Shown: positions 1 to 22,761 of the stretch, in pieces
Layout of the letters: every line of letters begins with the position of its first letter
Numbering within the stretch: position 1 is the first letter of the stretch
From: a bacterium
Lineage (GTDB): Bacteria > SZUA-182 > DTGQ01
DNA length: 22,761 nucleotides
Assembly: GCA_040752695.1 (NCBI GenBank)
Contig: JBFMGO010000100.1
Span: forward strand, 1 to 22,761
Reading direction: 5' to 3'
The notes under the pieces: generated by a model
Database searches by the model: none
Told to the model about the DNA's origin: nothing
What the model saw: only the letters and a program-made list of their open reading frames with translations
Made by a program: the position numbers and the translations under genes

Positions 1-3000
1 GATGAACTTTCTGTTGAATCACTTATTTTCCTGAGGGCCTATCGCGGCGGCAAGCGGTACATCGAGCAGTTCAGAAGGGTGGATTTTACCACCAAGAACA
101 GGAAGAAGATAGAAATAAAGGAAGATGGTATTTATGTAATAACAGGCGGTCTGGGGGGAGTTGGGCTGGTTATGGCAAACTACCTGGCACAGAAAGGGAG
201 GGTAAACCTTGCGCTGATAAGTCGAACGGGAGTGCCAAGGGGTAAGGAGCAGCAGGATTATCTCAGAAAGATTATGACCACAGGGACCAGGGTGGAATGT
301 ATAGCAGGAGATTGTACTGACTTCAGAAGAATGGACAAGATCATGAAAGGACTTCGCCAAAAATATGGCCGGATAAATGGCATTATTCACGGTGCGGGAA
401 TTATAGAAGTTGATACTCTCATTAACCGGTCCGAAAAAGAGTTCCTTTCAGTACTGAGTCCGAAAATAGAGGGCACTTTTATCCTTGATCGGGTTACTGA
501 AGAAGAAAATCTGGATTTCTTCATTCTTTTTTCATCAGTGGCCACTGTGTTCCCTACTATCGGTCAAAGTGACTATGCTGCGGCAAACATGTACCTTAAT
601 GCATATTCACAATATAGAAACAAAAAGAACAGAAATACGCTGACTATTAATTGGGTAGCCTGGAAAGATGTAGGTATGGCCGTTAGTACGGGGATCAGCC
701 AAGGCTTTATATTTAAAGCACTGCCCATTGATAAAGCCATGAAAGGATTTGATAAGGTAATACAATACCCTATCAGTAATGTTCTTATAGGCGAAATCAA
801 TTATTCCGATAATATCGTGTCTTTACTGGAAAAATATCCTGTAAGCCTGTCCTTAGACATTAAAGAGAATCTCAATCAGAAAAAAGAAGAGAGTAGTGCA
901 AGCAAGAAATCGAAGGCAGCCGTTGGCACTTCAGTAAGATTGGCGGGCAGAGAGGATAATAATTATACGGAAACTGAAAAAATATTGGCAGCTATTTGGG
1001 GCAAGATCCTGGGATTTGAAGAGCTGGATATCTTTGCCTCATTTTATGCATTGGGTGGAGATTCTATCCTTGCTTTACGGATAATTAATAACGTTAATAG
1101 CGAATTTAATATAAACCTCAATATTTCTGAGCTCCTTAATTATGTAAGTATTGCTTCTCTGGCTGAGATGCTCGATAGAGATTATCCAAGGAAGCACAGG
1201 AGGGCTCCTGATAGCATAGGAGAAAAAGCCACCTCATATCCCCTTTCCTTACAGCAGAAGAGGATGTATTCCATGTGCAACATGCCCGTAACATATCTTG
1301 TTGAAGGAGAAATTGATGCAGTTCGTGCGGATTTCGTTTATGATTTCTTAGAGCCTGTAGAAAAAAGAGAATATTATCCTGCCTCATCAGCACAAAAGCG
1401 CCTCTTTTTTTTAAACCAGTTAACGCATATTGGCATAAGTTATAATCTTCCTGTTATCGTAAAAGTGAAAGGGAAGTTTGATAAAAATCGATTTGAAAAT
1501 GCCATAAGGGAATTGATTGAATATCACGAAGCATTGAGGACATCTTTTCAATTGGTAGACAATGAACTGATGCAAAAAGTACATGATAAGGTTGATTTCA
1601 AAGTAAACTATATCCAAACCAATAAGTCCACCCTGCAAGAAGGAGATATCAGTCAATTAGCAAAAGAACTTATTCAGCCCTTTGATTTGTCAATAGCCCC
1701 CTTATTCAGGATTGCTTTGATTACTACTCTCTCAGAAGAGGAACATCTGATTTTATATGATCTTCACCATATTATCGCCGACGGGACTTCAATACAAATT
1801 TTTAATGCAGGATTTATGCGTCTGTACAAAGGAGAGAAATTATCCCCCTTGAGGATTCAATATAAAGATTATACCTGCTGGCAAAATAAATTGCTTGAAA
1901 CCGAACAAATCAAAGCACAAGAAAGGTATTGGCTGGACGTATTTTCAGGAGAAATACCGAAGCTGGATTTACCTACAGATTTTCCCCGTCCGAGTATTTT
2001 CACCTTTAAAGGTGATACCTGCTTATTTAAACTGGGATATGAAGACACCCAACTATTAAAAAAAATGTGCGCGGAGTGCAGCGTCACTTTATTCATGAAT
2101 ATCTTGGCAGCCTTTTATGTGCTCTTACATAAGTATACAAACCAGGAGGATATAATCGTCGGCTATGGAATAGGCGGACGTTCACATAAAGATTTACAAC
2201 CCATTATGGGTATGTTTATTAATACCTTGGCCATGCGAAACCAACCACGGCCCCAAAAGACCTATAAAGAGTTTTTAGATGAAGTAAGGGAGAATTGTTT
2301 ACAGGCTTATAAAAATCAGGATATTCAATTTGAAAGGTTAATAGACAAAATCGATTTACAAAGAGATCCATCAAGGACCCCGCTTTTTGATGTATCAATT
2401 GTGATTCAGAATTTTGAACGCTCAAGGGAGAGGATAGAAGAGAATATCTTTCATGAATATTACTTTGAAAAGAAAACTTCTATGGTTGACCTTACTTTAT
2501 TTATCAATGAGATTGACAATGAGATCCATTTTACTTTCGAATATTACTCAGCGATATTCAAACAAGAAACCATTCAGCGGCTCTCCAACTACCTGGTAAA
2601 CATAATAAAGCAGGTATGTAAAAATTCACAGATTCCAATATTAGATATAGACATCCTCTGTGAAGAAGAAAAGAGCCAACTATTGCATACCTTCAACCGG
2701 ACCAAAGCTTACTATCCGGAAGATAAAACAATTAACGAATTATTTGAACAACAGGTAGCAAAGGCGCCAGAGGCGGTTGCCTTAACCTTTCAGGCTCAAC
2801 AGCTTTCTTATTCAGGGTTGAATGCAAGAGCCAATCAACTGGCAAGAGTATTAAGGCAAAAAGGGGTAAGACCGGGTAGTATAGTTGGGATGCTCTTCGA
2901 GCGCTCAACAGATATGATAGTAGGGATACTTGGAATCCTAAAATCGGGTGGTGCCTATTTGCCGATAGATCCAGGGTATCCATTGGAAAGAATAAGCTAT

Positions 3001-4599
3001 ATGCTCAAGGACAGCAAGGTAAAAATAGTCCTTACACAAAAAGATTATCCATTTTCGGATAATTTATCTCCTGTTGACATTTTACCTGTAGACAACGAGG
3101 GCATGTATTCGAGGGAAGCATGTAACCCGGAGATTATAAATACTCCCGACGATCTGGCCTATATTATCTACACTTCGGGGACTACCGGTGAGCCCAAGGG
3201 TACAATGATTGAACATCGAGATGTGGTTAACCTTATCTGGGCATTAAAAGAGAGGGTGTATAGGAGGTATGAAAATTGCCTGAAAGTGAGTCTGCTCGTT
3301 TCCTACACTTTCGATGCTTCTGTGCAGCAGATATTTGGGGCTCTATTACAGGGGCACAGCCTTCATCTTGTTCCCGAAGGCATTCGAGCTGATGCTGCAG
3401 GTTTACTTAACTTTTACACAAGAAACGAGATAGATATTGCAGAGGCGACACCTGCCCATGTCCGGTTGTTGCTTGATCATATGAGACATAGTAAATTCCC
3501 CCTCAGGGTAAAACATTTCTTTATAGGGGGAGAGGCCTTACCCCGTCAAATAGTAAAGGATTTTTTCCATTGTATTAAGGAGAATACCCCTGATACTGAG
3601 CAAAATGTTCCTATAATCAGTAATGTGTATGGTCCGACTGAGTGTTGTGTAGTCTCTACCTCATACGAAATTACAACTGAAAACATAGATCATTATGAGA
3701 GTATTCCGATAGGCAGGCCCATCTTAAATAAACAGATTCATATTGTTAACAAAGAGAATAGACTTCAACCAATCGGAGTGGTAGGAGAAATATGTGTATC
3801 CGGCCATGGATTATCCAGAGGCTATTTAAATAAGCCGGACTTGATAGCAGAGAAATTCATAGATAACCCTTATGCAAAGGGGTGCAAGCTTTACAAGACC
3901 GGAGACCTTGGCAGGTGGCTCCCTGACGGAAATATTGAATTTATCGGCAGGATAGATAACCAGGTAAAAATACGCGGCTTGAGGATAGAACTTGGCGAAA
4001 TCGAGGCTCACCTCCTCAGGACATCGGGAATCAAAGAAGCGGCGGTGCTGGCCAAAGAGGCTGATGACGGTCAAGAATTCCTCTATGCTTATATTATCTC
4101 AGATAAGAGCCTGACAATGAATGAGTTAAGAGAACATTTATCAAAGAATTTGCCAAATTACATGGTCCCTTCATATTTTATTCAGTTGGAGCAATTGCCG
4201 TTAACTTCAAATGGGAAAATAGACAGGAAAAAATTAGAATCATGTGGCCAAGCAATGATGACAGGTGTTCAGTATGTTGCTCCAGAGAATGAGCTGCAAG
4301 AAAGGATTGCTGCTATCTGGGGAAAAATACTCAAATTGGATAAGGTGGGCATACATGATAATTTTTTTGATCTTGGCGGTAATTCATTAAATATTATCCA
4401 GGTTAACGATATGCTGAAAAAAGAGCTGAGCAGAGAAATTTCAGTAACATCCCTTTTTCAATACCCAACAGTAAATTCTCTGGCCAGGTTTTTAAATAAT
4501 CTCGAAGAGAACCAAACGTTTTCTGATCGCAAGGAAATCCTGGGAAAAGGGATGGATAAGTTGAAGAGATTGAAAAACAAGAAGATATCGGTAAATTAA
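1..4599 (+). CDS. Hybrid PKS-NRPS, 5'-truncated: KR-ACP-(C remnant)-C-A-PCP
   Basis: Frame 1 is open from base 1 (DELSVESLIFLRAYRGGKRYIEQF...), so the GTG at 79 is internal. KR Rossmann motif YVITGGLGGVG and catalytic GQSDYAAAN; ACP LGGDS (Ser 1063); C domain HHIIADG (1765-1785); A-domain motifs YIIYTSGTTGEPKG, YGPTE, YKTGD, NGKIDR; PCP FFDLGGNS (Ser 4384); TAA at 4597-4599. Confidence 0.96.
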   Translation, partial: DELSVESLIFLRAYRGGKRYIEQFRRVDFTTKNRKKIEIKEDGIYVITGGLGGVGLVMANYLAQKGRVNLALISRTGVPRGKEQQDYLRKIMTTGTRVECIAGDCTDFRRMDKIMKGLRQKYGRINGIIHGAGIIEVDTLINRSEKEFLSVLSPKIEGTFILDRVTEEENLDFFILFSSVATVFPTIGQSDYAAANMYLNAYSQYRNKKNRNTLTINWVAWKDVGMAVSTGISQGFIFKALPIDKAMKGFDKVIQYPISNVLIGEINYSDNIVSLLEKYPVSLSLDIKENLNQKKEESSASKKSKAAVGTSVRLAGREDNNYTETEKILAAIWGKILGFEELDIFASFYALGGDSILALRIINNVNSEFNINLNISELLNYVSIASLAEMLDRDYPRKHRRAPDSIGEKATSYPLSLQQKRMYSMCNMPVTYLVEGEIDAVRADFVYDFLEPVEKREYYPASSAQKRLFFLNQLTHIGISYNLPVIVKVKGKFDKNRFENAIRELIEYHEALRTSFQLVDNELMQKVHDKVDFKVNYIQTNKSTLQEGDISQLAKELIQPFDLSIAPLFRIALITTLSEEEHLILYDLHHIIADGTSIQIFNAGFMRLYKGEKLSPLRIQYKDYTCWQNKLLETEQIKAQERYWLDVFSGEIPKLDLPTDFPRPSIFTFKGDTCLFKLGYEDTQLLKKMCAECSVTLFMNILAAFYVLLHKYTNQEDIIVGYGIGGRSHKDLQPIMGMFINTLAMRNQPRPQKTYKEFLDEVRENCLQAYKNQDIQFERLIDKIDLQRDPSRTPLFDVSIVIQNFERSRERIEENIFHEYYFEKKTSMVDLTLFINEIDNEIHFTFEYYSAIFKQETIQRLSNYLVNIIKQVCKNSQIPILDIDILCEEEKSQLLHTFNRTKAYYPEDKTINELFEQQVAKAPEAVALTFQAQQLSYSGLNARANQLARVLRQKGVRPGSIVGMLFERSTDMIVGILGILKSGGAYLPIDPGYPLERISYMLKDSKVKIVLTQKDYPFSDNLSPVDILPVDNEGMYSREACNPEIINTPDDLAYIIYTSGTTGEPKGTMIEHRDVVNLIWALKERVYRRYENCLKVSLLVSYTFDASVQQIFGALLQGHSLHLVPEGIRADAAGLLNFYTRNEIDIAEATPAHVRLLLDHMRHSKFPLRVKHFFIGGEALPRQIVKDFFHCIKENTPDTEQNVPIISNVYGPTECCVVSTSYEITTENIDHYESIPIGRPILNKQIHIVNKENRLQPIGVVGEICVSGHGLSRGYLNKPDLIAEKFIDNPYAKGCKLYKTGDLGRWLPDGNIEFIGRIDNQVKIRGLRIELGEIEAHLLRTSGIKEAAVLAKEADDGQEFLYAYIISDKSLTMNELREHLSKNLPNYMVPSYFIQLEQLPLTSNGKIDRKKLESCGQAMMTGVQYVAPENELQERIAAIWGKILKLDKVGIHDNFFDLGGNSLNIIQVNDMLKKELSREISVTSLFQYPTVNSLARFLNNLEENQTFSDRKEILGKGMDKLKRLKNKKISVN
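124..1176 (+). other. PKS KR-ACP didomain (end of a module whose KS/AT lie upstream of the window)
   Basis: GIYVITGGLGGVG, IIHGAG, FSSVA...GQSDYAAAN, INWVAW, then ACP FYALGGDSI. Boundaries approximate. Confidence 0.9.
1237..1338 (+). other. Vestigial C-domain N-terminus fused to a carrier-protein tail (module deletion scar)
   Basis: YPLSLQQKRMY...NMPVTYLVEGEIDAVR is a C-domain start. It is followed directly by ADFV and then a second, complete C start (EPVEKREYYPASSAQKRLF). Confidence 0.75.
1369..4500 (+). other. NRPS module C-A-PCP; A-domain code DAQEFGVVVK (Gln/Glu family, divergent)
   Basis: Code read by alignment to GrsA from FDASVQ, IAEATP, FFIGGE and NVYGPTECCVV. Nearest classical codes are Gln DAQDLGVVDK and Glu DAKDLGVVDK. 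Confidence 0.7.
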
Positions 4600-4600
4600 C

Positions 4601-4606
4601 AGGTGG
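4601..4606 (+). promoter_or_regulatory. Probable ribosome-binding site for the 4844-aa gene
   Basis: AGGTGG lies 7 nt upstream of ATG 4614, within a 14-bp intergenic gap. Confidence 0.6.
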
Positions 4607-4613
4607 TGTAATT

Positions 4614-7600
4614 ATGGGTAAAAACTTAACCGGATTTGAGATAGCTGTTATTGGCATGTATGGAAGGTTTCCCGGTGCTGATAATATTGAAGAATTTTGG
4701 AATAATCTTATAAATGGGGTTGAATCCATTACTTTTTTTTCTGATGAGCAGCTATCAAATATTGGTGCAGGGCTTGTCAAGAATACAAATTCGGTCAATG
4801 CAGGAGGAATACTTCAAAACAAAGATTCGTTTGATGCCTCATTTTTTGAATATTCTCCCAAAGAAGTGGAAATTATGGATCCGCAGATGAGGGTCCTGCA
4901 TGAATGTGTATGGAGTGCGCTTGAGGATGCAGGATACAGTCCGGGGCAATATAAGGGATTAATAGGTCTTTATGCAGGCGCATCACCCCATTTTTACTGG
5001 GAAGCCCTTTCAACCCTTACCGGTAAAGTTAATGATTTTGGGATATTTGCTGCTCAGCAATTATTTGATAAAGATTTTTTAACCACCCAGATTTCTTACA
5101 AGCTGGATTTAAGGGGTCCCAGTGTTACCCTTTATACTGCCTGCTCTACCTCTTTAGTGGCTATTCATATGGCTTGCAGGGCTCTGATTGGCGGAGAGTG
5201 TGACCTTGCTCTGGCCGGCGGCGTATCCATAAGCTCACACGACAGGTCAGAGTACAGCTATCAGGAGGGAATGATTGTAGCTCCTGATGGTCATTGCCGA
5301 TCATTTGATGCCAAAGCTCAGGGAACGGTGTTTGGTGAGGGTGCCGGGATTATTGTGCTCAAACCTCTGGAGAACGCGATTGAGGATAATGACTTTATTC
5401 ATGCAGTTATTAAAAGCACAGCCATTAACAATGATGGGAAAAGAAAAGTTGGGTATACTGCCCCGAGTATCCAGGGACAGGCAGAAGTAATCAGGACTGC
5501 TTTAGAATTGGCCGAAGTTGACCCGGAAAGCATCAGCTATGTTGAAGCGCACGGGACCGGGACTGTATTGGGTGATCCTATTGAAATTGAAGCATTAAAA
5601 TTAGCATTTAATACGAACAGAAGAGGTTATTGTGGTATCGGCTCCGTGAAAACAAACATTGGACACCTTGATGCAGCAGCTGGTGTGGTAAGTGTAATAA
5701 AAACCATACTGGCCATGAAGCATAAAATAATCCCAAAGAACCTGCATTTTAAAACCCCTAATCCTAAGATAAATTTTGAAGAGAGCCCTTTTTTTGTAGT
5801 GAAGGAATTGAAAAAATGGGAAGATGGAGCACATCCTATTCGAGCGGGGATAAACTCTTTCGGGATTGGAGGAACTAATGCCCATCTTATTCTGGAAGAA
5901 GCTCCTCAGATAGATGACACCACCAGAAGCAGGCCATATCAAATTCTTTTACTTTCCGCTAAAACAAATACCGCTCTTGGTCAATTAGCGGAGAATCTGG
6001 CAGACCATTTAAGGAAAAACCCCGGTTTAAACCTGGCTGATGTCGCCTATACCTTGCAAACGGGCAGGGAGGCTTTTCGATATAGAAGAATGATTGTATG
6101 CTCTGATATTGATGAGGCAATAGAATTATTATCCTCTGCTCAAGGAAAAGAGAATATTTCCTTAATAAAAGAAGATGAAAAATATGCTGTCTTCATGTTC
6201 CCGGGTCAGGGCTCCCAATATATAAATATGGGAAAAGAGCTTTATGATACGGAAATTGTGTTTCGCAGAGAGTTAGACCGGTGCTTTAAAATCTTATCTC
6301 AGATTACTGGAAATGATTTAAAAGAAATCCTCTATCCATCTGCTGCTGATACCAGATCTGCCAAAATTAATCAAACAGAGTATGCTCAACCTCTATTATT
6401 TATTTTTGAGTATGCATTAGCCAAACTCCTCATGAGCTGGGGAATAAGGCCAAAGGCTATGATTGGCCATAGCATAGGTGAATTTGTTGCCGCGCACCTG
6501 TCCGGCGTTTTCTCATTGGAAGAAGCAATAAAACTGGTAGCCACGAGAGGAAGGTTGATGCAGCAACTTCCCCTTCATACCTCTCACGCCTTCCATAAAG
6601 ACAAAAAGGCAATCTTTTTTGAAACAGGCCCTGGCAGAGCCTTAGGTATATTTGCCGAGCAGCATAAAGAGAGGGACCCCGGGCAGAAGATAATCAATAT
6701 GGTAAGACATCCCAAGGAAGGGGTCTTGGATGGAAAATACCTTCTATCAAAGCTGGGTGATGCCTGGTTGTCAGGGTTATCTATAGATTGGTTCTATTCA
6801 GAAGAGAAAAGAAAGCGCCTGCCTTTGCCGACCTATCCCTTTGAGAAAAGGAGCTATCAAATTAAGGGCGACCTATTCAAACTGGGTGGGATATCTCAAC
6901 AAAGAAAATTGACTAAGAATCCAAATATTGCAGACTGGTTCTACGTTCCTTCCTGGAAACGTACTCTATTGCCTCCTGAATCTGCATACCAGCCATCAAT
7001 TCAGCATAATTGGCTCATATTCACAGATGAAACCGGTTTAGGATCTCGAATTATAAAAAGATTGAAAGCTCAGAATCAGAATGTGACTATTGTGAAGGCA
7101 AGAGCAGAATTCTCAAAAACAGATGATCAGGAATATAGTATCAATCCGGAGCAGGATAATGATTATTACAGGTTATTTGAATGCTTAAGAAAGGAAGGCA
7201 AGCTACCCGAGAAAATCGTTCACTTGTGGACTATATCAGACGACAGCGGGAATGATGATAAAGATTATACTCCTGAACTGGTTGATGAATATAATAACTT
7301 GGGATTTTATAGTTTGCTCAACATAGCTCGGGTGATCGGAAGGACGAGTATTACAGCCCAAATAAAGGTAATCACCAACCGTCTGCAAGAGGTAACAGAA
7401 CATGATTTTCTGTCTCCATGCAAGGCAACGGTTCTTGGACCGGTAAAGGTGATTCCCCATGAATTTCCAAACATCCATTGCATCTGTATTGATATTGAGT
7501 GGCCGGGCTCAGGAGGAAATAATGCTTTGCGAATGGTCGAAATACTCGGCCGGGAATTAGAAAGTGAAACTCCTGATATGATCATTGCTTATCGTGGTAA

Positions 7601-10600
7601 TCACCGTTGGGTTCAAATATTCGAACCGGCACGGTTGGCAAAACCAGGTGACGCTAACATCAGATTAAAAGATGCCGGCGCTTATCTTATCACAGGAGGA
7701 CTGGGCGGCATAGGCCTCGTACTTGCCGAGCATCTCGCTAAAACAAAGAAGGCAAGGCTTATTCTCACAGGACGTTCCTTTTTCCCGGCCCGAAATGATT
7801 GGGATGAGTGGCTGAAGAGCCATGATCAAGAGGATAAAACAAGCATCAAGATACGAAAAGTACAGGAGCTGGAAAAGTTTGGAGCGAAAGTATCAGTTTT
7901 CAGTGCAGATGTCTCAAATAAGCTCCAAATGCAGCAGGTAATGACAGGTGCAAAGGAATACTTCGGCGGAATTGATGGGGTTATCCATGCAGCAGGTACT
8001 CCTGACAGTGGAGTAATACAGTTGAGATCACGTGAAAAATCAGAGGAAGTATTCTCCTCAAAAATAACCGGATTACTTATATTGGATACTCTTTTGCGGG
8101 AGAATTCAATCACTTTGGATTTTTTTCTTTTCTGCTCATCATTGGCTTCCATTTTGCCGCCCTTTGGCCAGGTAGCATATTGTGCTGCCAATATTTTTCT
8201 CGATACCTATGCCTGCTTTAAGGTTTCTCAAGGCGGGCCAGTTACTATCTCGCTTAACTGGGATACATGGCAGGAAGTTGGTATGGCCTTTGAGACAATG
8301 AAGGATTTATCTTCAAAGGGATACAGCCTTGAGAAAGGGATATTACCTTCCGAAGGAGTAGAAACCTTTCGATATGTCCTTGAAAGTGCACTATCAAATG
8401 TTGCCGTATCAACTACAGATCTGCAGATGCGGATTGAGCAAATGCATACCCTGGAAGACGAAAAGTCAAAGTTACTTGAAGCTTTTGAAGAAGACTCGCC
8501 CTCTGTAAATTATCTTCCAAGACCTGAATTAAGTACTGAATACATGGCCCCAATGAGCGAGGTTGAGCAAAGACTTGCCCAGATGTGGAAAGATTACTTA
8601 GGCTTTGAAGAGATAGGCATACATGATAATTTTTTTGAATTAGGGGGGGATTCATTAAAAGCTGTAATGATTATTTCAAAAATTCACGAGGAATTAAATT
8701 CAGAACCTCCCTTAGCCATATTTTTTGATAACCCTACCGTTCAATCCCTGGCCGATTACATTGAAAATTCACAGAGAAAGATATATCGAGGTATTGAGCC
8801 TGTTGAAAAGAGGAAGTATTATCCTCAGTCCTCGGCTCAAAAGCGGCTTTTTATTATAAATCAGTTTGATAATGTTGGTGTAGCTTATAATTTATTTTTA
8901 GTAAAAAAACTCGAAGGCATATTTAACAAAGACAGGTTCGAAAAGGCGGTAGAGGCTCTGATTGAGCGCCATGAGATACTAAGGACATCCTTTACCATTA
9001 TTCATGATGAACCGGTTCAGATAATCCATGACAGGATTGATTTTGAAGTAAGATATTATGAGCTTGATGAGAAAGAAATGAAGCAAGAAAGAATGAGAGA
9101 ATTAAGCAAAGATTTTTACCAGCCCTTTGATTTATCTCGTGCTCCTCTCTTTCGCATCGCCTGTGCCAGGATGGTACCTGACAATGAATTTTACTTTATA
9201 CTACAGATGCATCATATTATTACCGATGGCAGTTCCGGAAATATTCTCTATAACGATCTTATGCATTTTTACAAGGGAGAAAAACCGAAACCGCTTCAAA
9301 TACAATACAAAGATTTTGTCTGCTGGCAGAATACCCTCATTGAAACAGGACAGTTCAAAGAGCAGGAAGAATATTGGACCAATTTATTTTCAGGAGGGAT
9401 TCCAAGGTTGGATTTACCATTGGATTTTCCCCGCCCTGATTTTTTCATGTATAGGGGAGAAAGCTATACCTTCACGCTTGATAAGAACACTACCTCTCAA
9501 CTCAAGAATCTGTGTTTAAAGCATGAGGCTACTCTTTTCATGACTCTCCTGGCAACGCTCAATATCCTGTTTCACAAGTATACTGGAATGGAGGATATTG
9601 TTATTGGAAGTATTGTAGCCGGACGCCGTTATCATCCGGAGCTGCAGAATCTCACTGGTTTTTTTATAAATGTCCTGGCTATGCGGAATTACCCCGGGAC
9701 AGATAAAACCTTTCTTACATTCCTGAAGGAAGTCAAGAAAAACAGTATCAGGGCTTATGAAAACCAAGAATTTCAATTTGAGGAATTAATTGATAGATTA
9801 AATATTGAAAGAGATCCTTCAAGGAACCCCGTCTTTGATGTCTGCTTTGTCGTGCAAAATTTCCAGGATCGATCAGCCCAGATGTTGCAACCCAATGAGA
9901 TGAAGGTACTTTCCTTATTTAAAGAGCAAGTCGAGGGGACAACCCTTTTTGACTTGGACATAGAAGCATCTGAAAGCGGTGATAAAATTCAAGTTGACAT
10001 AAAATATTGTACATCATTATTTAGACGGGAGACTATAGAACGGCTTGCCGGGCATTGGCTGAACATTGTGAATCAGGTTTGCCTGAGACCTGATATGCGG
10101 ATAGCTGACATTGAATTACTTTCAGAGAATGAAAAAAGAAACATCTTGTTCGATTTTAACCGGACAGAAGTAAAATATCCGGAAAATAAAACCATCTGTG
10201 ATCTATTTAAAGAGCAGGTAGATCGGCTGCCTGATAAAGTGGCGGTGACATTTAAAGATTATTCAATTACCTATCAGGAATTAGACGAAAAATCTAACCA
10301 GGTTGCCAATTATTTACATGGTGCAATCCAGATCCGTGCGGAATCAAAGATCGGGATTTTTATGGATAAGTCCATTGAGGTCATCATCGCGGTATTTGGA
10401 ATTTGGAAAGCAGGCGGCGCCTATGTTCCCCTTGACCCCTCCCTTCCCTTAGAGCGAATGAGGGACATCATCGATGATGCAGGCATCTGCCACATTCTCT
10501 CCCGGGGAAAATATCTCAATGTTCTCAATCAATTGCAAGAGCAGTGTCCATCAATGAAAGCCTTCTGTTATCTTGACCGGTCCGATACCGGCCTGCTCCA

Positions 10601-13600
10601 AAGGTACAGTAAGGAGAGATTGAACCTGGCTATTCCTCCAAAGCATCTGGCCTATGTTATCTATACCTCAGGCTCCACAGGGAAACCCAAAGGAGTAATG
10701 GTAGAGCACAGGCAATATGTGAATGCTGCCTATGCCTGGAGGGATGTCTATAGGTTGAGGAGTCAGGACTCAGAAGTGAATCTTCTTCAAATAGCCGGTA
10801 TCTCCTTTGATGTATTTGCGGGTGATCTGGCCAAGGCACTTGTAAATGGAGGAAAGCTCATACTCTGCCCTGAGGATTTGTGCCCAGATTTTGAGGGAAT
10901 GTATGCCTTGATCAAAAATCAAAAGGTGAGCCTGTTTGAGTCAACCCCGGCCCTGATTATACCCTTTATGGATTACGTCTACACTTTTGGCTTGAATATA
11001 GATAGCTTGCAGTTGCTCATCCTTGGTTCGGATACCTGTAATGCTGAGGATTTCAGGACACTGAGTCTGCGCTTTGGGGACAGGATGAGAATTATCAATA
11101 GCTATGGGGTCACAGAGGCAACCATAGATACAAGCTGCTATGAAGAATCCCTTGGCAAACTTCTTCAATCCGGAACTGTGCCCATCGGAAGACCGCTTCC
11201 GAATATGACCTGCTACATCCTTGATGAAAATGAGAAGCTTCAGCCCATCGGAGTTCCCGGTGAACTATACATAGGGGGTGCTGGAGTATCAAGGGGGTAT
11301 GTGTCCCAAGAGGAATTAACGAAAGAAAGATTCAGAAGAAACCCTTATATCAAGGGAGAACGTGTCTATAAGACTGGAGATCTGGCAAAATGGCTTCCGG
11401 ATGGCACTCTTGCCTTTTTGGGCAGATCAGATTATCAGGTCAAGATCAGAGGGTACAGAATAGAGCCCGGAGAGATAGAGTCAAAGCTTAAAGGACACAG
11501 CGAGATAAAAGAGGCGGTGGTCATTGATGGTGAAGATAATGCTGGTGATAAATACCTATGTGCATATGTTGTTAGTGACCGAGCGATTGAGGCACAGGAA
11601 TTGGAAGAGCACCTGTCACAATCATTGCCCAGGTACATGATACCTTCCTTTTTTATTCAAGTGGAAAAAATACCACTGACTCCAAATGGCAAGGTAGACA
11701 GAAAGGCTTTGCCTTTACCTGCGATAGCTGCAGGGCAAAAGTATATTGGCCCAAGGGATAGAATCGAGGAAAAGTTAGTTGAAATCTGGTCAGAAATACT
11801 GAGAAAAGAAGGAGAGCTCATCAGCATTGATGCAAACTTTTTTCATTTGGGCGGGCACTCATTGAAGGCAACCATCCTTGCCTCCAGAATACATAAGGTG
11901 TTTGAGATAAAAGTGCCTCTGAACATCATTTTCAAGTATCCTACTATAGAAGAAATAGCCAAATACCTAAAGGGTAAAGAAAAAGATCAATACCTGGCTA
12001 TAAGGCCGGCGGATCAAAAGGAATATTATCCTCTATCATCAGCCCAAAAGAGACTCTATATTCTGCAGCAGTTCGAGGAAAATAGTATAAGCTATAACAT
12101 CCCCTTGATATTTCCCTTGGCAGAAGGACTGGATAAAGAGAGGCTTGAGGATATCCTCAAAAAATTAATAACCAGGCATGAGAGCCTGCGGACCTCTTTT
12201 GAAATAATCGATGATGAACCAGTGCAAAAAATTCACCAGGAGGTCTCCTTCTCGATAGAATACTACGAAACTGATGAGAGTGATCTTGACATCATAAGGA
12301 GCAACCTCACGAAAGCCTTTCACTTGAGCCAGGCTCCTCTTTTAAGAGCAATTTATGTGCAAATGATTTCTTCCTCCCGGGCGGCAGGTTTTATCGATAT
12401 GCATCACATTATTACTGATGCTGAGTCAAATCAAATCTTAATCCGGGAGATTAAGGCCCTGTATGAAGGGAGGGAATTGCCGGAGCTTCAGCTCCAGTAT
12501 AAGGATTTTTCCGAGTGGCAAAACAGCCGGGAGCAGCAGGAACAGATCAGGCAGCAGGAATTATACTGGCTGGCAATATTTTCAGATGAGATACCTGTGC
12601 TGAATCTGCCCACAGATTACCCAAGACCTCCCGTGCGAAGCTTTGAGGGCAGCACAGTCGACTTTACCTTAACGGAAAAAGAAACCCGGATACTAAAGGA
12701 GGCAGCCAGAGAGACAGAAACCACACTTTTTATGGTTGTTCTTTCCCTCTATACCATCCTTCTTTCAAGATTGAGCGGCCAGGAGGATATTGTTGTAGGA
12801 ACTCCCATAGCCGGACGAAGGCATGCTGATCTGGAAGGCATTGTCGGAATGTTCGTGAACACCCTGGCCCTGCGGAACTACCCACACGGGGGAAAAAGCC
12901 TGGCCGGTTTTTTCGCAGAGGTAAAGGAGAGGACTCTTAAGGCCTTTGAGAATCAAGAGTTTCAGTTTGAGGACCTGGTTGATAAACGAAAGATTCAAAG
13001 GGAAATGAGCCGCAATCCCCTGTTTGATGTAATGCTTAATATATTAAACCAGGCAGAGTCCCAGGAGGACATGCTCAGGGGCAATGAGCAGGATTTCTTT
13101 AGGCATAAAAAGAGTACAGCCAAATGTGATCTGACCCTGACCGCTCTGGAAACCGGGAAGAGGCTGTATTTTCAATTTGAATATAGCACCAGACTCTTTC
13201 ATCCGGCCACTATCGAAAGATTTATCAGCTCCTTTAGACAGCTCATCCAGGCAATGAGAAAGGGCATGCAGCAGCGGTTATCAGATCTTGAAATACTGTC
13301 TGACCGGGAAAGGAATCAGCTCCTCCATGATTTTAACCAAACCGAAAGTTCCTATCCAAAGGACAAGACCATTCAAGAGTTGTTTGAAGCGCAGGTTGAA
13401 ATGACGCCGGATAATATAGCTGTATCCTCCGGAGGCAAAAGCATTACCTATTCGGAATTAAATAAAAGAGCCAATCAACTGGCCAGGGTGCTGAGAGAAA
13501 AGGGAACAGGCAGGGACTGTATTGTAGGAATACTCATGAATCGCTCAATAGAGGTGGTGATCGGTATACTGGGAATAGTAAAGGCAGGGGGATGCTACTT

Positions 13601-16600
13601 GCCGATTGACCCGGAATACCCGCAAGAGAGAATGCTCTCTATGCTGGAGGATAGTAAGGCCCAAATCCTCCTGACCCAGGATACTTTCAGAAGTAAAGTA
13701 AAATTTCGTGGTGAAATGATCAATGGAGAAGATGAAAAGGTATATGCAGGAAATTCTTCTAATTTATCGAATATAAACAAGCCTGATGATCTGGTGTATG
13801 TAATCTATACCTCCGGGTCAACAGGAAAACCTAAGGGTGTGATGATATGCCACCAGGGGCTGATCAATTATATTGAATGGGCCAAAAAGGTATATATCAG
13901 AGATGATAATCCAGCCTTTCCATTATATTCGTCCTTATCTTTTGATTTAACAGTTACTTCAATCTTTACTCCCTTGATTTCAGGAAACAAGATAATAATT
14001 TATGAAGATGATAAGAAGGATCTTCTTATCGCCAGGGTGATACAAGAGAATAAGGCGGGAATAGTGAAAGTTACCCCGACCCACCTTAACCTGATAAAGG
14101 AGGGCTATTATGGCAAGTCCAGTATCAAGCGACTGATTGTAGGAGGAGAAGACCTTAAAACTGAGCTGGCCAGGCAGATATATACTGCTTTTGATGGGAA
14201 TATTGAAATATACAATGAATACGGGCCGACTGAAGCATCTGTGGGCTGTATGATTTATAAATTCGATTTTGAAAGTGATACAAGGCCATCTGTACCAATA
14301 GGCGTTCCGGCAGATAACGTTCAGGTGTATATAGTGGATAAGTACCTGAATCTTTTGCCAATAGGTGTTGCGGGCGAATTGTGCATCGGAGGGGATGGGT
14401 TGGCCAGGGGATACTTATACAGACCGGAACTGACCGCTGAAAAATTTATTCCTCATCCCTTTATCCAGGGAGAGAGAATATACAAAACAGGCGATCTGGC
14501 CAGATGGCTTCCTGATGGCCGGGTGGAATTTCTCGGCAGGATGGATCATCAGGTCAAAATAAGAGGATTCAGGATAGAGCTTGGAGAGATCGAAAGTCAG
14601 TTGCTCACTCATGAGGCTGTTCAAGAAGCTGTAGTGCTGGCTCAGGAGGCCGATGACGGCCACAACTATTTATGCGCCTATCTTGTTTCAGAAAGGGAAC
14701 TGACAACTGATGAATTAAGAAGGCATCTATCAAGAAGCCTGCCTGATTACATGATCCCTTCATATTTTATTCGGCTGGAGGAATTACCTTTTACCGCCAA
14801 TGGTAAAATAGATCGCCGAGCCTTGCTGGAGATGGGAAAAAACGCCGGTCTTAGCACAAGTGCCGCCTACCAGCCGCCGCGTAACCACATTGAAAAGCAA
14901 CTGGTGGAGATATGGGAAAAGGTCTTAAGAAGAAAAAATATTGGCATCAATGATAATTTTTTTATGGTTGGCGGAGACTCCATCAGGATTATTCAAATTA
15001 TTTCAAGGCTGAGCACGTTTGGCTATAAGCTGAGTGTAAGAGATGTATTCCTTCATCCGACCATAGCCGGATTAGCTCCTCTGGTTAAGTCTGTAAAGCG
15101 CATAGCTGAGCAAGGGCCGGTTACCGGACATCTGCCCTTGACTCCGAATGATTATACCTACAAAAAGCTGCCCATTGAGGTAGTGAGTCACCTGCAGGAG
15201 TTATATGAACTAAAAGATATATATACCTTATCTCCTCTGCAGGAGGGCATGTTATTTCATGCCCTGTATGATAAAACTTCTCCTGCCTATTTTGAGCAAT
15301 TCTCCTATCGATTGGAAGGCAGGCTGGAAATATCTCTGGTAGAAAGGTCGCTCCAGGAGCTCTCCCAGCGGCATGATGTATTAAGGACAGTATTTCTCTC
15401 TGAAAATATGGGCCGTCCCATTCAACTGGTGCTCAAAGACAGAGCCCCTGAATTTTCATTTGAAGATATACGTAACAGAGGCGGGGAGGCAGAAAGAAAG
15501 GCTTTCATAAGGGATTTCAAGGTCAGGGATAAGGAGCGTCTGTTTGACTTAAGCAAAGGTCCTCTCATCAGGATGAGCATCCTTCAAGTATCGGAGGCAA
15601 GCTATGAAGTTATCTGGAGCTATCACCATATCCTGATGGATGGCTGGTGTTCAGGGATACTGCTGGCAGAATTTTTCGAAATTTACCAGAGCCTGGTTGA
15701 AAATCGTCCCCACACACTACCGGAAGCACCACCCTATAGCAGATATATCGCCTGGCTGGAAAATCAGGACAGGGAGCAATCAAGAAGATATTGGATTGAT
15801 TATTTATCCCTCTATGATGAGGCAACAGGCATCCCGAAGTCAAAGAACAATCAAAAACCCGGTGGCGGCTATCAGCACGGGCACTCTGTATTCACTCTCT
15901 CAGAGGAGAGAACCCGCAGGTTGAGCCAACTTTCAGGAAGGTTGAAAGTTACCCTGAATACGATTATCCAGACTGTCTGGGGGGTCTTGCTCGCCAAATA
16001 TACTGGTAAAACAGATGTAGTTTTTGGGGCGGTAGTTTCAGGCCGACCATCAGAAATAGAAGGAATAGAGTCGATGGTTGGATTATTTATCAATGCTATC
16101 CCTGTGCGTATACAATATGACGAGAGCATGCAATTTGACACTTTGCTTCAGCAGGTACAAGAGAGAGCCATAGAAAGTGAACCTTACCATTATTATCCAC
16201 TGGCTGAAATACAGGCAAATTCCGAGTTAAAACAAAATTTAGTTGACCACCTGGTAGTATTTGAAAATTATCCTCTTGGCGAGATCATTGAAAACCTTCC
16301 TGTTAAAGTAACTCGGGGAGAAGTGTTCGAGCAGACCAATTATGACTTTAACCTTCTTGTTTCTCCGGGAGGCACATTAGGCATGGAATTTAAATATAAT
16401 GCAAACTTGTTCCAGGCTGATTTCGTACAATCCATAGCCAGGCACTTTCTTCACATAATAGACCAGATTATAGAAAATGAAAAAGTGACCATGAAAGCCC
16501 TCCATCTTCTCTCGGAAGAGGAAAAAAATCAAATCCTCCATGGCCTTAACAATACCAATTTCTCTTATCCGAAGGATAAGACTATCCATGAATTATTTGA

Positions 16601-19190: not shown

Positions 19191-20555
19191 TTGAGAGATT
19201 TGATATGTCTCATGGCCGCAGGCGGTACCACTGGAGATGTAAGGCCGCTCTTGGGATTAGCTGTCGGCTTAAAGCAGAGGGGTCACAGGATTCGTTTCTT
19301 TGCTGATCCGGGATTTAAAGATCTGGCTGAACAGAGGGGGATCACCGGGGAAGAGTGGTTCAGTTCAAGCATTATCCCTCAGCCCGTCTTTTGGCGAACC
19401 GAAAGTGCCCAGAGATATCTATGGGGCAAACTGCCAAGAATACGTGACCTGATGTTTATCCGGAAGTTACACAAAAGCCATTTCCAAAAGGCAGAAGCAT
19501 TCTTAAAGCACCTTGATGCCCGGAATAACTCAGCGATTGTTGCTTCAATAGCCAGCCTATCTGCCCGGTCTGTTCTTTATAAATTTGGCCCCAAGTGCGC
19601 TAAAATTATCTCCTGTCCTATGCCGTATCAGCCAAGCAGTACTTTCTCACTGGCCCCTTCGGAGCCTTTCTTTAAAACCCCGATTGGAAAATGGTTCTTT
19701 CATATTCTCTGCTATCGAAGATTGATAGGTTTCAGAAGAAAGAAATATGAGAATTTTATAAAAAAAACTTACCATCTTGTTTCTGTAAGTTCAGAATTTT
19801 TCCCTCGACCGAAAGACTGGCTGCCGAATATGCAAGTTACCGGCTATATTCCACTTCAGGAGACAGGGGACTGGCAACCACCAGACTCTCTGGTTCAATT
19901 CTTAGAGAGTGGAGATGAGCCTCTATACGTCGGCTTTGGTAGCCTGGCATTATTTTCCGGACTGCGCGGAAAAAAACTGGCAGCAAAAGTAATCGAAGCA
20001 GTTTCTCGGCTTAATCAGCGCTGCATTATCCAATCCCCAGACTTGTCTGATCTTTCTCATCCTTCCAATATTTATATTATGGATTATGCCGCTCCTCACC
20101 ACTGGCTTTTCCCTCGTTGTGCAGTTATCGTGCATCACGGCGGGTATGGTACAACTCATGCGTGTTTGTCCGCGGGAAAGCCCATGGTTATCTACCCATT
20201 TCATACCGACGAGTTTCTCTGGGCGAAAAAGGTTGCCGAGTTTGGAATTGGACCGACTCATACAGTAAGAATCTGGAAACTGGACCAGGAGGAATTGATC
20301 AAAGGTGTTTTATTTGCCCTTAAGCCGAGTGTACAAAGAGCTGCCCAAAGGTTTTCTGTCATAAGAAATGAAGATGGCCTTTCTGTGCAGATTTCGGCTA
20401 TTGAGAGCATCATAGAGCACCATCAACGTGGCCTCTCTCCATGGCAATGGAATATGCCCTCTGACCTCACTGTTGATGACACAGCCGGGCAATACCAGAA
20501 ATCAAAGGACAGAGAACAGGAGGGGCGCAAAGTCGAATGTCATCTCATGAGGTGA
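19191..20555 (+). CDS. Family GT1 glycosyltransferase (sterol-GT / GtfB-like clade), paralog A
   Basis: N-terminal GGTTGDVRP; FPRPKDW...VTGY; PLYVGFGS; PHHWLFPRC...HHGGYGTT. The TTG start is supported by the upstream AAAGGAAGG and by alignment to paralog B. Confidence 0.92.
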   Translation: MRDLICLMAAGGTTGDVRPLLGLAVGLKQRGHRIRFFADPGFKDLAEQRGITGEEWFSSSIIPQPVFWRTESAQRYLWGKLPRIRDLMFIRKLHKSHFQKAEAFLKHLDARNNSAIVASIASLSARSVLYKFGPKCAKIISCPMPYQPSSTFSLAPSEPFFKTPIGKWFFHILCYRRLIGFRRKKYENFIKKTYHLVSVSSEFFPRPKDWLPNMQVTGYIPLQETGDWQPPDSLVQFLESGDEPLYVGFGSLALFSGLRGKKLAAKVIEAVSRLNQRCIIQSPDLSDLSHPSNIYIMDYAAPHHWLFPRCAVIVHHGGYGTTHACLSAGKPMVIYPFHTDEFLWAKKVAEFGIGPTHTVRIWKLDQEELIKGVLFALKPSVQRAAQRFSVIRNEDGLSVQISAIESIIEHHQRGLSPWQWNMPSDLTVDDTAGQYQKSKDREQEGRKVECHLMR

Positions 20556-21820
20556 TATGCCTTCTGACGAAAAATGGGACTGCCGGGGATGTGCGGCCGC
20601 TTTTAAGACTGGCTGCCGGATTGAAGCAGCGCGGCTACAGGATTTACTTCTTGGCTGATCAAGGATATAGAGAATCGGCCAGGCGGATCGGAATTACTGA
20701 GGAAGAGTGGTTTTGTCCGGGCGATATTCCACTCTCCATTTTTTTACGAACTGAAAGTGCCCAGAGGTGGCTGCGGGGCAAAGCTCCAAGAGTGAGTGAC
20801 CTGATATCTGCCCGGAAATTCCGGAAAAACCAGTCCGAAAAGATAGAAGCATTCTTAGAGCACCTTGAGGCTTGGAATAATTCAAGAATTATCGCTTCTA
20901 TAGCCAGTATATCTGCCTGGTCCCTTCTCCATAGGTTTGGCCCCGCGTGCGCGAAAATTATTTCCTGCCCTGCGCCTTTTCAACCAAGCAGCACCTTTTC
21001 CCTCGCTCCACCAGGGATTTTTTGGCAAACACAGGTTGGAAAGTGGTTTTTCAGGAACTTGCGCCAACGCCGCATTACAGGAAACACCAGAGAAAAATAC
21101 CTGAAGTTCATGCACAAGAGCTATCATCTTGTTTCGGTAAGCCCGGAATTCTTTCCGCGACCAAAGGACTGGCTGCCGAATATGCAGGTCACCGGCTATA
21201 TCCCCTTACGGGATATGGAAGACTGGCAGCCGCCGGATTCTCTGGTCCAATTTTTAGAAAGCAAAGATGCACCGGTATATGTCGGTTTTGGGAGCTTGCC
21301 ATTTTTTGCCGGGCAGTGGGGGAAAAAACTGGCCACCGAGATAATCGAGGCCTTTTCCATTCTCGGACTGCGCTGCATCATCCAGTCTTGCGACTTATCT
21401 GATTTTCCTCATCCTCCCCCTGTGTATATTATGGACTATGCCGCCCCTCACCACTGGCTTTTTCCCCGCTGCCAGGTTGCAGTGCACAATGGAGGATATG
21501 GCACAACCCACGCCTGCCTTTCTGCCGGTAAACCCATGGTCATTTATCCTTTTCAGGCAGATCAGTTCCTCTGGGCGAAAAAGGCGGCAGAGTTTGGGAT
21601 TGGACCAAATGATGTAATGAGAATCGGGAAGTTGAATCGAAAAAGATTGATCGCTGATATTCTCTTTGCTCTTGAACCGGATACACAAAAGGCTGCCCAA
21701 AGATTTTCCGCAGCGATACGGGAAGAAGATGGTTTTCCCGTTCAGATGTCAGCTATCGAGAGCATCATTGAGCACCATCAGCGCAACCTTTCCCCTTTAG
21801 AATGGAATATGCCTTTATGA
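20537..21820 (+). CDS. Family GT1 glycosyltransferase, paralog B
   Basis: GTAGDVRP; FPRPKDW; PVYVGFGS; HNGGYGTT; PFQADQFLW. AGGAGG at 20518-20523 precedes the ATG. Overlaps paralog A by 19 bp. Confidence 0.92.
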   Translation: MSSHEVICLLTKNGTAGDVRPLLRLAAGLKQRGYRIYFLADQGYRESARRIGITEEEWFCPGDIPLSIFLRTESAQRWLRGKAPRVSDLISARKFRKNQSEKIEAFLEHLEAWNNSRIIASIASISAWSLLHRFGPACAKIISCPAPFQPSSTFSLAPPGIFWQTQVGKWFFRNLRQRRITGNTREKYLKFMHKSYHLVSVSPEFFPRPKDWLPNMQVTGYIPLRDMEDWQPPDSLVQFLESKDAPVYVGFGSLPFFAGQWGKKLATEIIEAFSILGLRCIIQSCDLSDFPHPPPVYIMDYAAPHHWLFPRCQVAVHNGGYGTTHACLSAGKPMVIYPFQADQFLWAKKAAEFGIGPNDVMRIGKLNRKRLIADILFALEPDTQKAAQRFSAAIREEDGFPVQMSAIESIIEHHQRNLSPLEWNMPL

Positions 21821-22761
21821 ATGAAAATGTGTATGACGGGAAGATCAACGGCCTTAAGTATATATCGTTTTATGAATCAAGTGGTTATGGGAATGCAGCT
21901 CGCTCCTATCTGCACGCTGTCAGACGTGCAGGAATCCCCTTCACCTGGAGCCCAATGGTGCCCGGGAGGGCGCTGGGCTTAGGATATGAACCATTCAAAG
22001 GGAAGGCCATAGGCGATCCTGATTTAGATCGGTTTTGTAACCGGCAGATTGACTATGATGCGGTTATTATCCATACTGTCCCGGAGTATTTTCCCTTTTG
22101 CATAAAACAGGAGTCAAACAACACACGTACTTTCGGATATACGGTCTGGGAAACAGATAAGATTCCCCGCCACTGGCCTGCACTTTTGAACCTGGTCGAT
22201 CATTTACTTGTCCCCTGCCACTGGAACAGGGAAGTTTTTCGGCAGGGCAGCGTTAAGACTCCCATTGATGTTGTTCCTCATATCTTTGAAGAAAAAGAGC
22301 CGATAAAAGGTGGATTCCCCTGGGACATACCGCCATCCGATTATATGTTTTATACTATTGGGGTCTGGACAGAGAGAAAGGCCGTCTGGAACGTAGTCAG
22401 ATGCTATTTGGATACTTTCACCGCACATGATCCGACCCTTTTGGTTATTAAAACGACCGGCAAGGACCTTACCAGGAGATTTTTCCGAAAATGGCTCGGG
22501 AGCACGAAATATGCCGTTTCAAAAATTATCCGCCGCTACCGCTCACCGGCCAGAATCATGCTCATAGATAATGAGATAAGTGACCAGGATATTCTGAGAT
22601 TGCACTATCGAGGAGACTGCTATATTTCATTATGCAGGTCAGAAGGGTGGGGATTAGGTGCATTTGATGCAGCCGGATACGGCAAGCCGGTGATTATGAC
22701 CGGTTTTGGTGGACAATTGGACTACTTACACCGGGATTTGGCTTTTCTGGTGGACTATTCC
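21817..22761 (+). CDS. Family GT4 glycosyltransferase, 3'-truncated (absent from the ORF track)
   Basis: ATG 21817 overlaps the upstream stop (ATGA) and the frame is open to the window end: MNENVYDGKINGLKYISFYESSGYGNAARSY...GYTVWETDKIP...LLVPCHWN...ERK...CYISLCRSEGWGLGAFDAAGYGKPVIMTGFGG, with a GT4 E-x7-acid motif at 22642-22668. Confidence 0.9.
   Translation, partial: MNENVYDGKINGLKYISFYESSGYGNAARSYLHAVRRAGIPFTWSPMVPGRALGLGYEPFKGKAIGDPDLDRFCNRQIDYDAVIIHTVPEYFPFCIKQESNNTRTFGYTVWETDKIPRHWPALLNLVDHLLVPCHWNREVFRQGSVKTPIDVVPHIFEEKEPIKGGFPWDIPPSDYMFYTIGVWTERKAVWNVVRCYLDTFTAHDPTLLVIKTTGKDLTRRFFRKWLGSTKYAVSKIIRRYRSPARIMLIDNEISDQDILRLHYRGDCYISLCRSEGWGLGAFDAAGYGKPVIMTGFGGQLDYLHRDLAFLVDYS

Follow-up and report, generated by a model that had tools for sequence, protein, structure and literature searches.

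A doubly deleted acyltransferase domain that retains both catalytic motifs, and its intact and absent counterparts in related hybrid PKS-NRPS clusters

An acyltransferase (AT) domain that has lost two internal blocks and still carries its catalytic Ser and His motifs raises the question of whether it is an enzyme, a relic or an intermediate. The preliminary description of the locus left three readings side by side, namely a cis-to-trans-AT transition state, a docking remnant and an unusual minimal AT. The window, i.e., the whole stretch of 22,761 nt that was analysed, is the entire contig C100 of a 239-contig assembly (GCA_040752695.1, hereafter G000), which represents the window's own genome. 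The reading that we favour, at a probability of about 0.72, is that the cis-AT lacking 62 and 65 codons is likely inactive and that its module likely still works, with a free malonyl transacylase of the FabD/BamD type loading the module's ACP in trans.

Two in-frame deletions within a cis-type acyltransferase

The features of the locus are collected in Table 1. The catalytic residues were located inside the hybrid gene where the preliminary description had placed them, the GHSIG (6465-6479) and HAFH motifs are both kept, and ETGPG follows at 6621. The spacings were likewise as described, with 41 codons from Ser to His and 9 from His to the Glu of E-x-GPG. The figure of about 109 codons, given there for comparison, holds for E. 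coli FabD (S92 to H201, as listed in Table 2 of PMC4207774), but not for the cis-ATs of the family to which the window AT belongs, in which the distance is about 99-103.

Table 1. Coordinates of the features in the window and evidence for their assignment
Feature	Position	Strand	Details and basis
3' part of upstream gene (KR-ACP-C-A-PCP)	1..4599	+	domain reading; synteny with G005
Hybrid PKS-NRPS gene	4614..19148	+	4844 aa; KS-AT (doubly deleted)-KR-ACP-(C-A-PCP)x3-TE; domain and active-site motif reading
Ketosynthase (KS), Cys-His-His motifs, cis-AT (hybrid NRPS/PKS) type	4638..5903	+	motifs; tree: sister of G005 KS (100/99)
KS-AT linker domain, intact	5904..6179	+	Pfam PF22621/PF16197; model pLDDT mostly 85-97
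Interval skipped in X1 (whole AT)	6176..6728	+	553 nt replaced by 13, net 540 nt (180 codons), in frame
N-terminal half of AT hydrolase core: GQGSQ, GHSIG (Ser 6471), conserved Arg (6546)	6180..6572	+	79% aa identity to G005 orthologue
Junction 1: 186 nt (62 codons) missing, i.e., ferredoxin-like small subdomain including CoA/ACP-binding RXR stretch	6572..6573	+	placement within a few nt
8-codon island LHTSHAFH with catalytic His (6594)	6573..6596	+	8/8 residues as in G005; pLDDT about 52, coil
Junction 2: 195 nt (65 codons) of large subdomain missing	6596..6597	+	DNA alignment to G005
C-terminal AT remnant (ETGPG strand, helices) and post-AT linker (LPTYPF)	6597..6870	+	alignment, motifs
KR (structural and catalytic parts) and ACP (GGDSL at 8643)	7011..8762 (end approximate)	+	domain and motif reading
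Scar of second in-frame domain loss: epimerase (E) domain, about 436 aa, intact in G005	15132..15155	+	comparison with G005

The deletions were measured against G005, a genome of the same family and a different genus, whose orthologous cluster is spread over four contigs and is syntenic with the window at 70-80% nucleotide identity. Among the 60 other genomes searched, with a first-look scoring of limited depth, the orthologous locus was found in G005 alone. Its AT is full length (Pfam Acyl_transf_1 positions 1-281 of 319, Ser to His 103 codons, His to Glu 74), while the Pfam match to the window AT covers profile positions 1-125 only. The DNA alignment of the window to G005 contains gaps of exactly 186 and 195 nt, each in frame, which flank LHTSHAFH. 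The claim that the ferredoxin-like subdomain and a later block are gone, with an 8-aa HAFH island left between them, was therefore borne out by intact homologues as two clean gaps, and the doubly deleted AT is a real feature.

In the alignment to ZmaA-AT, residues 13-233 of the window construct correspond to ZmaA 3-226 and residues 239-318 to 361-443. Deletion 1 begins at the residue aligned with ZmaA 225/226; as ZmaA-AT's small subdomain, described in PMC4207774 as carrying the RXR stretch by which CoA and ACP are oriented, comprises A226-I292, the first gap begins at the first residue of that subdomain. Of the features of a functional cis-AT, the GHSxG nucleophile and the conserved Arg are present, the His motif lies at the 41 codons given above instead of about 100 residues past the Ser, and none of the 62 small-subdomain columns is kept. 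At the 99 AT columns conserved in at least 85% of 92 homologues, the window retained 74, lost 22 and changed three; the deletion of 22 conserved columns indicates that the loss is not a matter of chance.

It is very improbable that an assembly error conceals a strain with a full AT. The G000 assembly is fragmented and the junctions are known from it alone, as they were found in none of 17 metagenome loci and 22 genome loci, and the best hit of the protein searches was 60% identical. Against such an error stand two separate gaps that are each a multiple of three. The window sequence contains no N. The junction flanks share at most 5 nt (with the G005 sequence as a proxy), too short for a repeat collapse. 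The missing AT blocks were not found elsewhere in G000, the search for them yielding only a partial Pfam match on C100, and in a close relative (X1, see below) this domain has likewise been lost in frame, but in another way.

Relative to G005, the N-terminal AT remnant had a dN/dS ratio of 0.095, close to those of the KS (0.094) and of a C domain (0.10), at dS 1.0-1.7. The remnant thus shows no visible decay in either its identity to G005 or its dN/dS, and the deletions are probably recent. This recency, and not a minimal enzyme, best accounts for the fact that both motifs survive. The same ratio is a counterpoint to our reading, since it gives no sign of relaxed selection and fits continued constraint as well as recent loss.

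The structure of a construct comprising the KS-AT linker, the AT and the post-AT linker was predicted with AlphaFold from a 93-row alignment. The mean pLDDT was 86.1; the island block scored about 52 (residues 234-238 below 50), compared with 90 and 89 for the neighbouring blocks. The model superposed on ZmaA-AT with a Z score of 34.1 and an rmsd of 2.4 over 304 of 436 residues. The remnant probably folds, leaving the KS scaffold undisturbed, and in the model the His loop is without its anchors. The notion of an unusual minimal AT consequently fared badly, with the CoA/ACP-binding subdomain and the 22 conserved positions gone and the His loop unanchored in the prediction. Ser, Arg and HAFH are all retained, and the window AT is the sole one with both motifs among the 19 shortened ATs surveyed below; still, it is extremely improbable that the short island places the His against the Ser so as to give an active AT or acyl hydrolase, given the loss of the small subdomain and of the conserved columns, the low confidence of the island in the model and the dispensability of the whole domain in X1.

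Absence of the domain in X1 and a free acyltransferase in G005

The relative X1, retrieved from a soil metagenome run, is about 95% identical to the window, and its contigs cover most of window positions 4600-8900 at 93.5-96.7% identity. One joining contig (1078 nt, depth 17.5) spans positions 5371-6175 and resumes at 6729, with 220 nt on its shorter side, so that the AT is wholly absent. The cut runs from the first AT strand to just ahead of the helix preceding the post-AT linker, and the remaining indels of this contig add up to multiples of three. The deletion is defined by one contig from one run at 80% stringency; X1 cover is absent over 6184-6615, and this absence was counted only since a single contig joins across it. 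Among the 40 differences listed of 192 between the KSs of the window and X1, 30 were synonymous and 10 non-synonymous. At 4753, 6791 and 7360 the window is shorter by 9, 6 and 6 nt, in frame, and X1 has the length of G005, so X1 is probably a sister lineage and not a descendant of the window allele. The AT loss in X1 may have started from either the intact or the gutted state.

In the G005 cluster, the gene corresponding in its 3' part to the upstream ORF of the window (1-4599) is overlapped at its start by a free AT gene (L025:3200-4471, 423 aa, motifs GHSLG and GPFH). The free AT scored 302.4 bits against TIGR00128 (fabD, cut-off 260.9), with both the Ser and His motifs present, and was 35% identical to BamD over 92% of its length. 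It matches malonyl-CoA transacylases of the BamD/FenF type and the 'fabD' genes of plasmid clusters along its length (35-43%). The gene after the free AT opens with a KS-KR-ACP module in which the span from the KS end to the post-AT linker is 190 aa, compared with 470 aa in the intact G005 module and 327 aa in the window; this first module is thus AT-less. One X1 contig matches the G005 free AT (82% over 289 nt, depth 14.9), its link to the cluster not being seen in the X1 contigs, and a second bridges the AT-less linker at unchanged length.

The standalone AT, a search for which the preliminary description had proposed, was therefore found in the G005 cluster and as a matching contig in X1, but was not seen in the G000 assembly. 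Neither the free AT nor the upstream KS was found there; the best match (37%) was the housekeeping FabD, and the window contig starts inside the upstream gene. By analogy with the relatives, the window's strain would carry the free AT in the unassembled upstream region. Other free ATs of G000 are encoded on contig C91, which carries the genome's FabD, and on C17, C132 and C98. Two proteins encoded on contigs C132 (L003) and C17 (L005), 792 and 769 aa long, are AT-enoylreductase-like, and these contigs also encode a 328-aa AT without the usual GHSxG match. Contig C69 was considered as the remainder of the window's cluster and rejected, as it carries a separate canonical trans-AT PKS whose KSs lie apart in the tree; no other G000 contig overlapping the window ends or bearing matching C or KR-structural domains was found. 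At the end of the C69 PKS (11237-31389; L001, L002), motif reading places a reductase-like domain joined to a GMC-oxidoreductase-like one, and the first module of this PKS contains a long degenerate AT-like insert.

The absence of the domain in X1, with the frame kept, weakens the proposal of a docking remnant. Selection could maintain a catalytically dead remnant if it served as a scaffold for folding or gave the free AT a place to dock, and several observations are compatible with this: the remnant and linkers are predicted to fold as a compact unit, the dN/dS of the remnant is as low as that of the KS, 14 of the 18 other shortened ATs lack the small subdomain but keep most of the large one, and a review describes trans-ATs as binding a remnant AT domain (PMC4849084). 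We nevertheless regard such selection as quite improbable. The whole remnant is missing in frame from X1, the first module of G005, predicted to work, has just the short linker region, and the divergence between the window and G005 is probably mostly older than the deletion.

Condition of the remaining assembly line

The catalytic motifs of the KS, ACP/PCP, C and TE domains are present in the window genes. The departures at conserved sites, window versus G005, numbered 7 versus 6 in the KS, 4 versus 13 in the KR, 3 versus 6 in C1 and 4 versus 13 in C2; these are not in excess of G005, and the other domains thus show no extra decay. A second in-frame loss has removed an E domain (Table 1). This deletion sits at a short, shared Thr-Pro repeat, and the PCP before the scar retains GGDSI. 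The start of the C domain after the scar resembles the type found after E domains.

The adenylation pockets were located by motif reading at aa 1104 of ORF1 and aa 2065, 3110 and 4227 of ORF2. Their codes (DAQEFGVVVK, DVGEIGSIDK, DLTKIGEVGK and DALFLGNVVK) are unlike those of G005 (DAWTIAAVCK, DVGEIGSIDK, DFWNIGMVHK and DILQLGVIWK) in three of the four window A domains, which suggests A-domain swaps. We assume the window pockets to be roughly Glx (doubtful), Orn, Asn and Leu-like, and those of G005 Phe, Orn, Thr and Gly. The E-domain loss and the pocket changes fit the rapid diversification of a working cluster, with early decay as the alternative; domain loss has been described as a path to diversity (PMC12184294).

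Further peculiarities of the two clusters were recorded. In the upstream gene of the window, a short stub resembling the start of a C domain lies between the ACP and C domains (1168-1386; weak match, E about 0.05-0.09), and G005 has a different, repetitive linker at that position. Two paralogous GT28/EryCIII-like glycosyltransferase genes and a GT1-like gene follow the TE (19191-22761), and glycosylation of the product is possible judging from these genes. Several linkers between domains of the G005 cluster (L022, L024, L025) carry an inserted, repeated peptide-coding element that is KEGTEAQRHKGT-like, and a frame break within the first A domain of C217 divides ORF 2 of G005.

These data bear on the alternative that losing the AT put the module, or even the entire line, out of action, the cluster being in early decay with its frame intact by recency, or the module being skipped. 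The window gene contains several deletions (two in the AT, the E domain and the private 9-, 6- and 6-nt ones), the upstream gene contains the stub, and the free AT was not seen beside the cluster in G000. The loss of the E domain and the three small private deletions, which could be early decay, also count against our own reading. Such decay is unlikely, however, as all six deletions preserve the frame, the 4844 codons contain no stop, the KS, C, PCP and TE motifs are retained and conserved sites show no excess change. In X1 the AT was lost at a different breakpoint with the frame likewise kept, and the KS differences are mostly synonymous.

We therefore return to trans loading as the preferred explanation. 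The window AT is likely a dead cis-AT, judging from the deletions and the model, and would be redundant through the free AT encoded in the cluster. The cluster may have fused an old cassette of a free AT and an AT-less module to a cis-AT module of the same malonyl specificity, which would have made the cis-AT redundant. Deletions within it would then be tolerated as long as the 14.5-kb gene stayed in frame and kept the scaffold of the KS-AT and post-AT linkers, and Ser and HAFH would persist solely owing to the recency of the deletions. In this genome the free AT would be encoded where the upstream cluster region is missing from the assembly, or another of the genome's free ATs may be used. 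Loading of the ACP in trans by the free AT and formation of a product are what we infer; it is an established finding that FabD or trans-ATs can rescue cis modules that are AT-null, as outlined in section 3.3 of PMC6164871.

Descent of the module, known systems and implications

A tree of 42 KS rows (a subsample of 99 candidates, midpoint root) placed the window KS as sister to the KS of the G005 cis-AT module (100/99), within a 34-row cis-type group and outside the trans-AT clade, the trans-AT KSs of C69 being located elsewhere. The KS of the AT-less G005 module grouped with AT-less KSs adjoining fabD-like genes on two plasmids (100/97). The module likely functions in a trans-AT-like manner, yet by these placements it is cis-type by descent.

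Shortened ATs were surveyed in 348 distinct KS-to-post-AT spans from fetched proteins and loci, a similarity-biased set. The span was 430-520 aa in 320 cases, 260-429 aa in 19 (the window included), below 260 aa in seven and above 520 aa in two. Of the 18 other shortened ATs, 17 keep at most 18 of the 62 small-subdomain columns, and the GxSxG Ser was present in two and the His motif in none. Those of them that were aligned to the G005 reference were more diverged from it (32-48%, compared with 72% for the window AT). The loss of the small subdomain in 17 of 18 points to a common path of AT decay, of which the window would be a young case. ClbI (8XJY) retains GHSLG and HAFH in the alignment.

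The best-matching solved AT by both sequence (E 7.5e-84) and structure is ZmaA-AT (PDB 4QBU). The zwittermicin A line is likewise a hybrid NRPS/PKS that mixes cis-ATs (ZmaA-AT, ZmaK-AT) with a free AT of about 400 aa, ZmaF, and ZmaK-AT carries the same GHSIG/HAFH malonyl motifs as the window (Table 2 of PMC4207774). Unlike the window AT, however, those of the Zma line have their full length, and ZmaF loads another extender (aminomalonyl-ACP) and is hence not redundant, whereas in the window/G005 cluster both ATs have a malonyl-type look and it is the cis-AT that is gutted in the window. The 'fabD + AT-less PKS' cassettes on plasmids of Clostridium estertheticum and Bacillus thuringiensis have the gene order seen in G005, and their AT-less KSs cluster with that of G005; in the window/G005 cluster, what comes after the cassette is a cis-AT module in the course of losing its AT. 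Canonical trans-AT PKSs (of the bacillaene and disorazole type, and the C69 cluster) share AT-less modules, a retained KS-AT linker and loading by a free AT, as described in PMC11907408, but the window KS lies among cis-AT KSs far from those of C69, and about 200 AT residues are left in the window. In engineered DEBS module 6, an inactive cis-AT is similarly rescued in trans by FabD, DszAT, KirCII or BryP (section 3.3 of PMC6164871); these constructs are laboratory-made, whereas the window, G005 and X1 form a natural allelic series.

The suggestion of a cis-to-trans-AT transition state gained support from the intact (G005), doubly deleted (window) and absent (X1) states, and from G005's free AT, which is encoded in the cluster next to an AT-less module. 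We consider it reasonably probable that these three natural states of one orthologous module, in a working line that owns a free AT, represent an ongoing de novo conversion of a cis-type KS module to trans-AT loading. Degenerate or shortened ATs and their trans-complementation are already known, and the new part is the intact/gutted/absent series in one module. We found no published account of such a series in one orthologous module; the search mostly covered literature outside subscription journals, and a prior description is possible.

The retention of Ser and HAFH is a caution for motif-based annotation, by which the window AT would be labelled a malonyl-specific AT. The origin of AT-less modules from cis-AT ones is usually inferred from old, eroded remnants, and here three alleles differ mainly in the AT. 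They allow a direct measure of the rescue of a cis-type module by a free AT, of the effect of the remnant on trans loading and of compensating changes in the KS and ACP. The X1 breakpoints mark a natural excision of the AT with the frame and both linkers kept, which is useful to PKS engineering; if the conversion reading is true, they would be evolution-tested breakpoints for building AT-less modules.
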